Shown here: piece after piece, positions 22,314-33,433 of the stretch
Layout: every line of letters begins with the position of its first letter
How positions within the stretch are numbered: position 1 is the first letter of the stretch
IMG/VR virus record: IMGVR_UViG_3300025941_000015
Location: 1 to 64,000 of that record
Length of the DNA stretch: 64,000 nucleotides
Direction: 5' to 3' (one strand)
Origin: a virus
The notes under the pieces: model-generated
What the model saw: the letters and a program-made list of their open reading frames with translations, nothing else
Told to the model about the DNA's origin: nothing
Database searches by the model: none
Program-made: the position numbers and the translations under genes

Positions 22314-24529
22314 CCCTGACCACTCGCCCGGCTACCGGTGGCACTGGGCTGCGCTCCACTGATGGGGGCCTGCGCTCCGGCGGCGTGTACTTCCCACCGG
22401 ACTCGGTGGCGCTCGACAACATCCTCGTAGCGGAGCTGGAGTCCCACGACACGGTGCTCGTGTCGTTCAACAAGGCCCGTGTGCCAGTGCACCCGACGGC
22501 CGGTGCGTACCTGGAGCTGACGCTCACGAAGAACCCGCTCGGTGTGCCGGTGACCAACCTCGACGGGCTGCTGCTCTCGCGCTACGACACCACCGCCGTC
22601 ACCGGGTGGCAGACCTACCGTGACAGCCCCGTCGCTCCGGGCACGTGGGCGCACTACGGGCTGTTTGCCAAGTACAGCTTCGGTGGCTCCCTGGAATGGG
22701 TCTTGGTGGACTCGGCAGAGGTGCTCATGCCCGTGCCGTTCTCGTACCAGGAGCGTCTCTTCAACCTGCTGCCCATGTGGTACCAGGAGGCTGACGACCA
22801 GACGTCCGACCACCTCGTGCAACGGCTCTTCGATGCCCTGGGGTTCGAGGTGGACATCACCCGCACGTGGGTCGAGACGCTCGGTCACATCTGGGATCCA
22901 GCCAAGATCCCAGCACGCCTGCTGCGCTACATGAGCGAGGTCATGGGCACGCCGTACGAGTCGTCGGTCGGTGACCCTCGCGTGCGCAAGCTGATGGCCA
23001 ACCTCGTGTACCTCCGCAAGATCAAGGGCACGAAGGAGTCGATCGAGGGCTACCTCACGGCGCTGTCCGGCTACCGGATCCTCGCACACCAGAGCCCCAA
23101 CCTCATCTCCAGTGTGGATGCAGGGGAGTTCAGGATGGGGACCGGTGGCTGGACCGCCGGAGCCAACACCGCCTTGTCGAGGTTGAGCATCGTTGCAGGC
23201 AACGCTCCACCTCCACCTCAGGGTGTGCTGCACATCGAGCGGACGGGCTCGACCGGCGCAGCCGTGGCCACGCTCGGCGGCACGACGAACACCACTCGCA
23301 TCCACATCGTCGATGGCACGGGCCGCCAGCTCGCCGTGTCGTTCAACGCTCGCACCACGCTCAGCTCGTTCAACGCCACCGTGGGCCTCAACTTCTATGA
23401 CCTCGACGGTGGGTTCATCTCCACCGTCAGCTCCGTTGGGCTGGGCTGCACCACAACCTTCACCCGGAGGTTGACGGCGTGGCTCGCTGTCCCCAACAAC
23501 GCTGAGTACGTGACCATCACCATCACCACGGGGTCGATCACCGCCACCACCGCACTGGAGATCGGGCAGGTCATGCTCGTCGACATCAGGTACCGCCCCG
23601 AGGGCATGCCGGGCTCGACCAACGTCGTGCCGTTCAGCCAGGCGGGGTCAGCCACCTACGCAGGCGTCGACTTCTACGACTCGCCGCGCTCGGTGTGGCT
23701 CAACGTCTACCCGCAGCGCACCAACTTCGCTGTCAACTCCGACTTCACCCTCAACAACCTCCCGACAGGTGGGTGGTCGGTGATGGACGCAGCGACGTAC
23801 GGGGCGATGCCGTTCGCCTACGCCACGTACACCGCCGTTGGCACGGGCGAGGTCGACTACGCCGACATCCCCAAGGGGTTCAACTCGATCACACCGACGT
23901 GGACGGTCACCTTCGATACGTCCAACAGCAGGCTTGCGCTCAACAGCTCGCCCGGTGCTCCCTGGGTGGGGCAGGTGCGCTCGATGGCGTGGCCGGTGCG
24001 CCCCGGTCTGGCCTACAGCGCTGGTGTGGAGATGTCATCGAGCATCGCAGGGTCCAAGGCGATGCTCCGCATCCAGTGGATGACCATCAACAACAGCTTG
24101 AACCCTCTGCTCGACGCCAACGGCATTCCGATGGTGACGCAGGGCCCGTCCTACAACCTCGTTGTCGGGTCCAACGTACGAGTCGAGATACGCAACGCCA
24201 TTGCACCACCGGGAGCAGGCTACGGCCGCCTCGTGGTCGAGTCGCTCGGTACTGCACAGCACGTGTCGTACATGCAGCGCGCCCTCATCGAGGACACGGC
24301 TGTGCCGGGTGGCTACTTCAACGGTGGTGTCAAGGACGGAGCGCCTGGCGACTTCGGCTACACCGGCACGACGAGGCAGACACCGTCGGTGTACTACATG
24401 AACTACAAGGCCATTCTGGGCAGCGGCTCGAACCGACTCCTCACTGCGAGCAAGGAGATGCTCCCGCTGCATGTGAACGAGCCCCGCATCATCTCTGCGT
24501 ACCAGGGCCTCTACACGGAGCTTGCCTGA
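22310..24529 (+). CDS. baseplate/tail protein (tail I-like) with carbohydrate-binding-like domains
   Basis: LFNLLP..Y, L..F..GF, KGT..I; follows baseplate J. Confidence 0.75.
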   Translation: MTLTTRPATGGTGLRSTDGGLRSGGVYFPPDSVALDNILVAELESHDTVLVSFNKARVPVHPTAGAYLELTLTKNPLGVPVTNLDGLLLSRYDTTAVTGWQTYRDSPVAPGTWAHYGLFAKYSFGGSLEWVLVDSAEVLMPVPFSYQERLFNLLPMWYQEADDQTSDHLVQRLFDALGFEVDITRTWVETLGHIWDPAKIPARLLRYMSEVMGTPYESSVGDPRVRKLMANLVYLRKIKGTKESIEGYLTALSGYRILAHQSPNLISSVDAGEFRMGTGGWTAGANTALSRLSIVAGNAPPPPQGVLHIERTGSTGAAVATLGGTTNTTRIHIVDGTGRQLAVSFNARTTLSSFNATVGLNFYDLDGGFISTVSSVGLGCTTTFTRRLTAWLAVPNNAEYVTITITTGSITATTALEIGQVMLVDIRYRPEGMPGSTNVVPFSQAGSATYAGVDFYDSPRSVWLNVYPQRTNFAVNSDFTLNNLPTGGWSVMDAATYGAMPFAYATYTAVGTGEVDYADIPKGFNSITPTWTVTFDTSNSRLALNSSPGAPWVGQVRSMAWPVRPGLAYSAGVEMSSSIAGSKAMLRIQWMTINNSLNPLLDANGIPMVTQGPSYNLVVGSNVRVEIRNAIAPPGAGYGRLVVESLGTAQHVSYMQRALIEDTAVPGGYFNGGVKDGAPGDFGYTGTTRQTPSVYYMNYKAILGSGSNRLLTASKEMLPLHVNEPRIISAYQGLYTELA

Positions 24530-24560: not shown

Positions 24561-24851
24561 ATGAGTACCACCACCATCACTCTGGCTGCAGCAGGGTTCC
24601 TCTTCCTCACGAGCATCAAGTTCATCGCCGGTGCCATCGGCGAGGAGATGATGAAGAACCTCGACCTCACCGCTGACATCGAGCTGGCCATCGCTGTTGT
24701 AGCCACACCCCTTGTCATGCTTGCAACAGGTATGTCGTACAGCGAGGCGCAGATCGGCACAGCAGCAGCGTTCTTCATCTCTACTGCCTGGTCTGCAATC
24801 GCAGTGTTCCGTACCAAGACGCTGTTGCAGATGACGCACGGCATCAGATGA
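24561..24851 (+). CDS. small membrane protein
   Basis: Three hydrophobic segments. Confidence 0.6.
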   Translation: MSTTTITLAAAGFLFLTSIKFIAGAIGEEMMKNLDLTADIELAIAVVATPLVMLATGMSYSEAQIGTAAAFFISTAWSAIAVFRTKTLLQMTHGIR

Positions 24852-25825
24852 GTACCTTCGTTGTACTCGGCGATGCGGACGCAGCACCACGGCTCGTCAC
24901 AGCAACGCTGAATGACTTCCTCGACACACATCTTGAAGTGACACCTGACGACGACTTCGTCATAGTCATTGCAGTTCGCAACCCGCCCCGCCCTGCCATC
25001 AAGCACGTCATCGAGTGGTGCCAGAAGGCTGGCATCTACTACACCATCGTTGCATCCAGCGACAGGGTGAAGATGCCGGAGGGCGTAGCGGAGTTCACAG
25101 TCGACAGCCAGTTCCTCGTGAAGGCTGTTGAGGACGGGTACGTCTTCGGGAGAGACGCTGCTATTGTGCTCGCTCTCGTCGGGGCGGAAGACCCGACTGT
25201 CGACGTCACTCGTGCTCTGGCACGGGCCGCCGACTCACACATGGTGATACGTGACCTCACTGAGGGAGCCATCACCTACATCAAGTTCCATGGAGACACC
25301 GTGGACATCCCCACCATTGAGGAGAACAACATGGCTGACGAAGCCGAAGAGCTGACACTGGAAGAACTGGTCTCACTGGCCGCCGAGGGTGACGAGGAGG
25401 CTGATGCGGCGCTGCGCGAAGCATGTGCCGAGTTCGACATCGATCCCGACGAGTACGCCACGTGGGAAGAGGTCGGCGAGCTGCTCGAAGCAGCGATGTC
25501 CGAGGAGCCCGAAGAGGAGGCCGAGGAAGAGGCCGAGCCCGAGCCGGAAGAGCCCACCGAACCTGCCGATGGCTGGACCGCAGCGGCGTTGAAGAACCTC
25601 ACCCTCAAAGAGGTGCGTGACATCGCCAACGCAGCCGGGATCGAGGGAGCCAAGACGGCGCCCCGCCCCGACCTCGTGAAGGCACTCATCGCTGGTACGG
25701 GTGACGAGCCCGCCAAGGCGACGAAGGCTGCGAAGGCGAAGCCGAAGCCCGCCGAGGGGACCGACGACGTCAGGGCTCTCGCTTCGGCGATCCTCGACGA
25801 ACTGGTCGCACGCCTGTCGGCATGA
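24848..25825 (+). CDS. acidic protein with Rho-N/HeH-like C-terminal domain
   Basis: Glu-rich core; LKNLTLKEVRDIA..GI..R.DLV.AL. Confidence 0.6.
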   Translation: MSTFVVLGDADAAPRLVTATLNDFLDTHLEVTPDDDFVIVIAVRNPPRPAIKHVIEWCQKAGIYYTIVASSDRVKMPEGVAEFTVDSQFLVKAVEDGYVFGRDAAIVLALVGAEDPTVDVTRALARAADSHMVIRDLTEGAITYIKFHGDTVDIPTIEENNMADEAEELTLEELVSLAAEGDEEADAALREACAEFDIDPDEYATWEEVGELLEAAMSEEPEEEAEEEAEPEPEEPTEPADGWTAAALKNLTLKEVRDIANAAGIEGAKTAPRPDLVKALIAGTGDEPAKATKAAKAKPKPAEGTDDVRALASAILDELVARLSA

Positions 25826-26238
25826 GCGACTGGCCCGAGTCAGGGGCCGGGGTACGGAGTGAGCCGGGGCGTGCGCAGCGCTCCGGCTCTCGCCGTTCTC
25901 ACGACATGTACACCTTCTGGCTCGACACGATGGAGCCGGTCACCCGTGGGCGCGCCGTCATGATCTTCGTCGACCGGCCACGGTTCCACGCCAACCTCAA
26001 GACGATCCGCAAGCAGCTCGCTGGCGGTGACGACGTCGACATGAAGCCGATCAACGATCGCATCCGGGCTGGCATGAAGGCGTACGCCGCCGCCATCAGG
26101 GCCGGGCACGTCGACATCGACGGCAAGCCTGCCTGGCCCATCTTCATGAGGATGTGGCCGAAGTACGTCACCAGCGCCACCAGGGCGGCCGCTACGGAGG
26201 ATGAGATTGCTTCTGGGAAGAGGCGGTGGGACGAGTAG
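25822..26238 (+). CDS. hypothetical protein
   Basis: ATGA overlap; true start may be 25906. Confidence 0.6.
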   Translation: MSDWPESGAGVRSEPGRAQRSGSRRSHDMYTFWLDTMEPVTRGRAVMIFVDRPRFHANLKTIRKQLAGGDDVDMKPINDRIRAGMKAYAAAIRAGHVDIDGKPAWPIFMRMWPKYVTSATRAAATEDEIASGKRRWDE

Positions 26239-26257
26239 AGTCGCTCTCCGTGAACGC

Positions 26258-26291
26258 GAAGGAGGGGCCCCACCATCGAGGCCCCTCCTTC
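26258..26291. terminator. 12-bp perfect stem-loop
   Basis: GAAGGAGGGGCC-N10-GGCCCCTCCTTC. Confidence 0.6.
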
Positions 26292-26312
26292 AAGATCCCC
26301 TACCAAGAGACC

Positions 26313-26412
26313 GCTAGCAAAGGAATCCCTCCGAAGAAAGGAACGAGCCCGATGAGCACTCGAAGTCTCATAACAAAGAACGTTGCAACTAACCGGAGGA
26401 ACCCTTGCTAGC
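26313..26412 (+). promoter_or_regulatory. structured leader sequestering the RBS and TTG start of the wHTH gene
   Basis: GCTAGCAA (26313) pairs with TTGCTAGC (26405); CCTCCG (26328) pairs with CGGAGG (26394). Confidence 0.55.
26352..26411 (+). CDS. putative 19-aa leader peptide MSTRSLITKNVATNRRNPC
   Basis: AAAGGA upstream; ORF overlaps the TTG start of the next gene and stops 1 nt after it. Confidence 0.4.
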   Translation: MSTRSLITKNVATNRRNPC

Positions 26413-27130
26413 AACGCAGATCCTAATCCCTGAGCGGTGGCTCGTACAACCTGCAGTGGTCTCAATGCAAGCGCTGCAGGAACCGACGCGCAAGCTGCGG
26501 CTGAGCCTCATCGCTGAGCGGGCGGCGTTGTCTGCCTTCGCTGCCCTTCGCTTCTGTGACAAGCCGATGATGGTCGATCTGTCGATGAATCCACCCAGTG
26601 ACATGGGGATGAGGATTCTCCGGCACATCCTGGTCTCAGGAGACCGCCGCTACTGGTCGTGGACGGCCACGAAGAAGGAAGCCCGCGGCAAGGTGCGCTC
26701 GTCACTCATGTGGGAGCTGCGGACTTCGAGCGGGAACATCAGCACCTCCCTGGGACCGCTGCTCGAAGACGGGGTGCTGGAGATCACGAAGAGGGCGAAC
26801 GGGAACGAGACCGTTGCCTTCACGCCGTTGGGCAAGATGCTCTTCGCCGAGCTGCAGTGGCGTTGGTTCCTGCTGGAAGCTGACCCCGAGTTCCTGCAGC
26901 CGCTGGCCGACAGCTACGGGTGGCAGGAGATCTCCATCCAGGTGGACAAGCGGATCTCTTTCAATGGGGCGGACCCCACCCGTAAGGTCGAGGTCATCGC
27001 TGCGATACGGGAGATTCCCCTGGTCACAGAGCTGTTGACCTCTACACCACAGAGGTCGCAACGACGTTCACACCTCTATGAGGTAGAGAAAGTTCCTCTA
27101 CGTGGTAGAGGTGTTATCTCTACCTCCTAG
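26405..27130 (+). CDS. winged-HTH DNA-binding protein, putative replication initiator
   Basis: MarR-like LRTSSGNISTSLGPLLEDGVL..FTPLG; GGAGG RBS 5 nt before TTG; iteron-like repeats at its 3' end; upstream of DnaC/DnaB/primase. Confidence 0.6.
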   Translation: MLATQILIPERWLVQPAVVSMQALQEPTRKLRLSLIAERAALSAFAALRFCDKPMMVDLSMNPPSDMGMRILRHILVSGDRRYWSWTATKKEARGKVRSSLMWELRTSSGNISTSLGPLLEDGVLEITKRANGNETVAFTPLGKMLFAELQWRWFLLEADPEFLQPLADSYGWQEISIQVDKRISFNGADPTRKVEVIAAIREIPLVTELLTSTPQRSQRRSHLYEVEKVPLRGRGVISTS

Positions 27131-33405: not shown

Positions 33406-33433
33406 AGACCACCCCTACCAAGAAGGAGGCTTG

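Follow-up and report, generated by a model that had tools for sequence, protein, structure and literature searches.

A putative translational-control leader, with a candidate antisense RNA, ahead of the replication module of an uncultured actinobacterial-type phage

In plasmid R1 (IncFII), whose tap-repA region operates together with CopA, a short leader ORF extends over the start of the gene behind it, and that gene depends on the leader for its translation, as outlined in PMC8053102. The RepR leader peptide of the IncI2 plasmids has 19 residues and overlaps the repA start, and an antisense RNA arises from the leader region, according to the outline in the same source (PMC8053102, citing Blomberg et al. 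1992). In the repY-repZ pairs of IncI-alpha and IncB plasmids (ColIb-P9, pMU720), a ribosome-binding site locked in a stem is opened by translation of the leader, and re-initiation takes place at the overlapping stop and start codons (PMC8053102, refs 49-51 therein). The phage locus described here resembles R1 tap-repA and IncI2 repR-repA in that an upstream open reading frame (uORF) of 19 codons overlaps the start of the next gene, and it resembles repY-repZ in that the main ribosome-binding site lies in a stem and the uORF ends just past the main start codon, with translation of the uORF as the putative means of opening. In the plasmids, repZ is activated by a pseudoknot that the loop of an upstream hairpin forms with sequence beside the RBS. 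Unlike the R1 and IncI2 systems, the phage locus encodes as its downstream protein a generic MarR-like winged helix and no recognisable Rep, its antisense RNA is a prediction, its uORF and occluded start are lineage-specific, and the element itself is a 105-kb genome without partition or integration genes.

Phages provide further points of comparison. In P22 (sar RNA) and in P1/P7 (c4-icd-ant), a small antisense RNA is made opposite the start of a regulatory gene, with control in P1 acting by way of a coupled upstream ORF. The RNA predicted here would likewise face the start region of a regulatory gene; unlike sar and c4, which belong to the immunity regions of temperate enterobacterial phages, it has a target that heads a replication module, and the genome gives no sign of lysogeny. 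In the MS2 coat-replicase region and in the lambda N leader, a long-range helix hides a start until upstream translation or processing opens it. The start region here is also hidden by a long-range helix; the upstream frame is a full gene in MS2 and the opening is by RNase III in lambda, whereas the present phage has the 19-codon uORF. By analogy, the phage leader would work like a known type of control and be at most one further example of it.

The locus and the start of the winged-helix gene

The window, the whole stretch of DNA analysed here, comprises the first 64 kb of a 105,626-base IMG/VR virus record that is rated complete by CheckV. The phage genome has a G+C content of about 63%, and nearly every gene lies on the plus strand. 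Searches for relatives returned none in IMG/VR (by protein, alignment or conserved 24-mer), none in GTDB genomes (by 22-mer or alignment) and none among GenBank phages (by DNA or protein), and no family came near its threshold in an Rfam search. For the helicase, the closest cultured relatives come from Streptomyces phages of ~113 kb, at 30% identity; the phage is uncultured, of actinobacterial type, and belongs to a lineage without close cultured relatives. The element under study occupies a 166-nt gap (26239-26404) that is opened by the TAG stop codon of the upstream gene (Table 1). The module to the right of the gap comprises the 241-aa ORF, one further gene of unknown function, a DnaB-type helicase and a Toprim primase.

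Table 1. Coordinates of the features in and around the gap, and arms of the closing helix
Feature	Position	Strand	Description
Upstream gene, 138 aa	25822..26238	+	From the ORF list; no family match in Pfam/PHROG scans
Palindromic hairpin	26258..26291		Perfect, 12 bp, G+C-rich, 10-nt loop
Invariant tail	26292..26312		21 nt; conservation ends abruptly after the tail
5' arm of long stem	26313..26333	+	GCTAGCAA (outer helix, 26313-26320), GG, CCTCCG (anti-SD, 26328-26333)
Terminator-like hairpin	26326..26342	-	7 bp (2 G-U), then T-rich tail; weak; from the terminator scan
uORF with its SD	26337..26411	+	AAAGGA 26337-26342; ATG 26352; 19 codons; TAG 26409-26411
Octamer GTTGCAAC	26382..26389		Just 5' of the SD
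3' arm of long stem	26394..26412	+	SD CGGAGG (26394-26399), CC, TTGCTAGC (26405-26412), including TTG 26405-26407
Gene for the 241-aa protein	26405..27130	+	MarR/ArsR-like winged-helix core; heads the module that includes DnaB helicase and primase
Promoter-like site	26420..26449	-	TTGTAC (26449-26444), 18 nt, TAGGAT (26425-26420); codons 6-16 of the winged-helix gene
Closing helix, window			5' arm GCTAGCAA; 3' arm TTGCTAGC
Closing helix, L003			5' arm GGTTG; 3' arm CAACC
Closing helix, L005			5' arm GGTTA; 3' arm TAACC
Closing helix, L006			5' arm GGTTAC; 3' arm GTAACC
Closing helix, L002			5' arm GGCA; 3' arm TGCC

The preliminary description of this DNA had placed the start of the winged-helix gene at the TTG that stands five bases past GGAGG, and this assignment is borne out. 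The 20 residues N-terminal to Met21 are conserved as protein in an alignment of 13 homologues, the differences between the window and the related locus L002 within this stretch are synonymous, and the reading frame is closed upstream by TAA 26390. The start is therefore TTG 26405; the alternative, ATG 26465, which would have overturned the preliminary description, is ruled out by the conserved N-terminal residues and the upstream stop codon. The homologues are all metagenomic, the closest being P0002 (77%), and P0004, P0008, P0009 and P0012 are encoded on long contigs.

An AlphaFold model built from the homologue alignment (pLDDT 84.5) contains a winged helix at residues ~62-148 that resembles numerous domains of MarR, ArsR, ROK and CRP type (VIA Z 7.3-9.6, rmsd 2-3 Å). 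Foldseek gave MarR-family matches at E ~0.02, and the Atlas leads agree. The winged-helix core that had been read from the DNA is thus supported at the level of the predicted fold. The further claim that the protein is a replication initiator gained no support, as a generic winged helix is all that was recognised and no Pfam or PHROG family matched the 241-aa protein at E<=0.01; its position before DnaB and the primase is the sole hint that suggests a role in replication. At the 3' end of the gene (27095-27111) lies a palindrome, CCTCTACGTGGTAGAGG, which is a candidate binding site for the winged-helix protein.

The occluded start and the upstream reading frame

The fold, the sequence features and the energetics given below are computed; we infer the coupling, the transcript ends and the antisense RNA. 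The motifs named in the preliminary description (CCTCCG, CGGAGG, GCTAGCAA, TTGCTAGC, AAAGGA, the 19-codon ORF and the 12-bp hairpin) were all found where it had placed them, and its long nested stem was recovered, together with the 12-bp hairpin, as the minimum-energy RNA fold of 26239-26480 (z -3.5). In the stem, GCUAGCAA pairs with UUGCUAGC, GG with CC, and CCUCCG with CGGAGG.

The opening cost of a start was taken as the free energy required to make positions -12 to +3 single-stranded. For the SD and TTG of the winged-helix gene it is 16.4 kcal/mol, as compared with 7.0±1.7 in dinucleotide shuffles of the upstream leader, and the real value was reached by none of 300 shuffles, which indicates that the stem and the occlusion are real and unlikely to be an effect of composition. 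When the 5' arm was removed, the opening cost of the main start fell from 16.4 to 2.9 kcal/mol. Among 140 start regions of the genome, for which gene starts were called crudely (mean 8.7, sd 3.8), TTG 26405 ranks fourth in occlusion, three other start regions being occluded as strongly. The start codon is spanned by TTGCTAGCAA, a 10-bp perfect palindrome, and for this reason GCTAGCAA is a direct as well as an inverted repeat. No sigma-70 or early-type promoter was found on the plus strand of the gap. The terminator-like hairpin on the minus strand is, taken alone, at chance level, because shuffles yield 1.9±1.3 such sites per 2 kb.

The uORF is preceded by its AAAGGA at a distance of 9 nt, and its stop codon lies 2 nt beyond the main TTG. 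Shuffles produce an SD-bearing uORF with its end a few bases at most from the main start in 2.1% of cases. The uORF start region opens at 8.8 kcal/mol, approximately the genome mean. By hand count, the GC3 of the uORF is ~0.53, which means that it is not codon-adapted. The small hairpins that had been noted at its start (CGAG/CTCG and ATGAG/CTCAT, 4-5 bp) are present, but they occur at chance level. Because the uORF reads through the entire 3' arm, the architecture fits the leader-peptide coupling that had been proposed.

The leader in related loci

The relatives were obtained from one metagenome scan, which yielded eight loci with proteins 48-63% identical, seven of them with upstream DNA; counts over eight loci below refer to the window plus these seven relatives (L002, L003, L004, L005, L006, L008 and L009). 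The 12-bp hairpin, which is the sole perfect hairpin of at least 12 bp within the first 50 kb, is paired in all eight loci, with one compensatory change from G-C to A-U in L005 and L009. Apart from that pair, neither the hairpin nor the 21-nt tail varies, and this extends to L004, L005 and L009, which are more diverged. The stem is followed by no U-tract, the adjoining sequence being AAGAUCCCC on the plus strand and GCGUUCAC on the minus strand, and the hairpin is not among the entries of the terminator scan. Hairpins lacking the U-tract are discussed as terminators in actinobacteria, and a terminator role is, therefore, possible despite the missing tract; we regard the hairpin as a candidate two-way terminator or stabiliser of an RNA 3' end. 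The tail folds solely as minus-strand RNA, and weakly (8 bp, of which 3 are G-U; -7.1 kcal/mol, z -1.9). The conserved block is unique in the genome, which rules it out as a repeated promoter motif. Separately, a 12-nt sequence equal to part of the tail, CCCCTACCAAGA, occurs at 33412-33423, directly 5' of the AGGAGG of the gene that starts at 33431/33434. Pairing of this copy with the putative antisense RNA is conceivable, although chance alone would yield one such match.

A sharp mosaic junction at 26312/26313 emerged from comparison with the soil-metagenome contigs L003, L006 and L008. To the left of 26312 (at least from 24.9 to 26.3 kb), and including the upstream gene, the DNA is 95-100% identical to that of the three contigs, whereas to the right, in the replication module, the identity is 50-80%. 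The pattern suggests that modules were recently exchanged at this point between genes. Conservation of the block by itself is only partly valid as a sign of function, given that in three loci the identity of 95-100% extends over the entire left flank.

Past the tail, the leaders are 42 to 101 nt long and unalignable. In the comparison with related genomes that the preliminary description had proposed, RNAalifold predicted no consensus pair across the leaders. None of the seven relatives has the anti-SD helix or the strong occlusion, and their start regions open at 3.3-8.6 kcal/mol. Sequestration of the ribosome-binding site and start codon accordingly stands for this genome (16.4 kcal/mol) but not for its relatives. 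On a MAFFT alignment, the window stem is 53.8% paired as against 47.0±2.4 in shuffles. Regarding the uORF, a homologous ATG is found in L002 only; L004 carries a different ORF of 28 codons, in the equal relative frame and with a GTGA overlap at its end, and none is present in the upstream DNA of L003, L005, L006 and L008. The coupling thus fits the architecture in the window, but its uORF is shared with L002 alone and, loosely, with L004. Since they are not kept in the relatives, all three elements (anti-SD helix, strong occlusion and leader peptide) count as lineage-specific.

An alignment-free test identified a helix that closes the leader, in which the first ~10 bases past the tail can pair with bases that lie on the start codon or immediately behind it. 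This closing helix is significant in the window (-15.9 kcal/mol) and in L003, L005 and L006 (p<=0.003 against shuffled arms), and marginal in L002, L004, L008 and L009 (p 0.08-0.11). The arms change in sequence between lineages (Table 1), and such changes look like covariation.

The minus-strand site and the interpretation of the leader

The phage's own promoters consist of TTGNNN, a spacer of 16-18 nt and TANNNT, followed by 6-9 nt to a leaderless ATG. A loose form of this pattern occurs 27 times on the plus strand, nearly always before a gene, versus 3 times on the minus strand of the whole 105.6-kb genome; no phage sigma factor was found in the genome. On the plus strand, TTGNNN-N17-18-TANNNT sites at 24522, 30271 and 32942, each with an ATG 9 nt downstream (24561, 30310 and 32980), look like internal leaderless promoters, and if the first is truly a promoter, genes 24561-26238 would constitute a separate unit that terminates at the 26258 hairpin. 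Outside the window, a divergent promoter-like pair at ~69,799 (minus) and 69,837 (plus) has the common prefix CAACGACGTTGTG, the former being one of the genome's three minus-strand promoter-like sites.

The minus-strand site within the winged-helix gene takes the form TTG(T/G)AC-N18-TA(G/T)(G/T)AT and lies at codons 6-16 in 8/8 loci. Its predicted transcription start is at ~26413, directed leftwards over the start codon, the SD and the uORF. The site depends on a Leu-CTA codon (1.3% of Leu codons) and a Gln-CAA codon (12% of Gln codons), which supply the first T of the -10 element (TANNNT) and the TTG of the -35 element, respectively. Only 3 of 76 conserved-residue columns have an invariant rare codon, and two of the three are this CTA and CAA, while the synonymous sites next to them vary freely. 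The genome contains no tRNA and thus no phage tRNAs for rare codons. The GC3 of codons 2-21 is 0.55, versus 0.81±0.13 genome-wide; rare A/U-ending codons after a start can instead be selected for an open start region. Because no conserved ORF follows the site on the minus strand, the predicted product would be non-coding; an ORF from TTG 26414 on that strand was ruled out, not being conserved in the relatives. The predicted antisense RNA would be ~155 nt long here; it would pair with the TTG, the SD and all of the uORF and extend into the 12-bp hairpin. A PWM of the early promoters rates the site poorly (-4.4, rank 1016 of 211,164), and its -35 element is weak, with 3-4 of 6 positions matching. 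The idea of antisense control, which was part of the preliminary description, thus receives some support from the occurrence of the site in all the loci, but the poor PWM score speaks against it.

We think it quite possible, though short of probable, that expression of the winged-helix gene is tuned at the RNA level by an occluding leader and uORF coupling, to which a cis-antisense RNA may add repression in every lineage. The 166-nt gap would then be the leader by which the module's first gene is regulated, and in it the conserved hairpin would end the upstream transcription unit and be followed by the invariant tail and a fast-evolving leader. The first 21 nt of that leader would pair with the SD and TTG, so that ribosomes could not load directly. 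A ribosome translating the uORF, whose start in the enclosed loop would be ordinarily accessible, would open the 3' arm completely, stop 2 nt beyond the TTG and re-initiate, the result being low, coupled expression. Across the leaders of the relatives, the short closing helix alone would have been retained, its sequence differing by lineage, and the codon 6-16 site, present in all of them, would direct a non-coding antisense RNA of ~100-170 nt that covers the start codon, SD and leader and ends at the hairpin. Taken in this way, the element is a plausible, partly lineage-specific translational control of a known kind.

Alternatively, a cis-antisense RNA might by itself be the conserved regulator, blocking the start region or triggering cleavage and ending at the two-way hairpin; the mRNA stem and the uORF would then be by-products, with the stem as the mirror image of one at the 5' end of the antisense RNA. 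Only three parts are indeed common to 8/8 loci, namely the promoter-like site, the 12-bp hairpin and the tail; the closing helix begins where the antisense RNA is predicted to start and is no less stable on the minus strand, and the invariant tail folds on that strand only. We nevertheless consider this alternative unlikely, because the site has weak similarity to the phage's proven promoter class, the strand preference of the helices is not significant after control for composition, and the occlusion is too strong for chance, while the placement of the uORF is left unexplained.

Another scenario, which we judge similarly improbable, is that the leader has no dedicated function and is a fast-evolving spacer at a recombination junction, the complementarity and the short ORF being accidents that were found by looking. 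The sharp boundary at 26312/26313, the leaders of 42 to 101 nt whose structure is absent in relatives, and the three other genome starts that are equally occluded would all be expected of such a spacer; the failure of all 300 shuffles to reach the observed occlusion, the recurrence of the closing helix with changed sequences and the position-specific invariance of the rare codons would not.

The leader might also contain DNA operators, namely TTGCTAGCAA, the copy of GCTAGCAA 92 bp upstream and GTTGCAAC, bound by the winged-helix protein or by a regulator of the early promoters. Palindromes close to the genes that encode them are the usual targets of MarR-like proteins, which favours such operators here. 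The tetranucleotide CTAG is ~16-fold depleted in the genome (21 observed vs 345 expected), and GCTAGC occurs only five times, yet both arms of the stem carry this palindrome, accounting for two of the five GCTAGC and two of the 21 CTAG sites. The octamer GTTGCAAC is here in its seventh genome copy, and the other six are confined to early leaderless promoters at 53-62 kb, of which they form the -35/operator part. The copy in the leader is followed by no -10 element on either strand, and the octamer is absent from the relatives. Quite low probability attaches to the operators, in our view, because the relatives have no equivalent palindromes at these positions and because the complementarity of CCTCCG with CGGAGG and of GG with CC would be superfluous; in addition, CTAG is depleted mainly via codon usage, which makes its non-coding copies less surprising. 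Several relatives have a GCTAGC just past the upstream stop codon and an ACTAGT in the leader.

A more ambitious proposal, which we offer as a speculation with only a slender chance of being right, is that a virulent actinobacterial-type phage sets the dose of an origin-binding winged-helix protein by a countertranscript, running from the codon 6-16 promoter to the two-way hairpin, together with leader-peptide coupling. If true, a plasmid-like circuit with a constitutive countertranscript would amount to sensing of genome copies during lytic replication.

The plasmid-type copy-number circuit of the preliminary description, with a leader peptide and a countertranscript acting on a replication initiator in an extrachromosomal or carrier state, is very improbable: its layout parallels R1 tap-repA and IncI2 repR-repA and a candidate antisense promoter exists, but the protein matches no Rep family and is a generic winged helix, the uORF and the occlusion are not conserved, the helicase is nearest, among cultured relatives, to those of Streptomyces phages (30% identity), and searches of the genome for a tyrosine or serine integrase, ParA and ParB were all negative, which gives no sign of episomal maintenance and leaves copy-number-like control and a carrier state unsupported.

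Because the fold recurs only in part among the relatives, the locus looks like a case of ordinary fine-tuning at the level of one gene, with possible help from an antisense RNA, rather than like plasmid-style copy control. It provides no evidence of plasmid life and does not change how such controls are understood to work. As a point of method, invariant rare codons at critical promoter positions can reveal an antisense promoter inside a coding region. If real, the arrangement would illustrate in detail how the lead gene of a replication module is controlled post-transcriptionally in an uncultured phage lineage.
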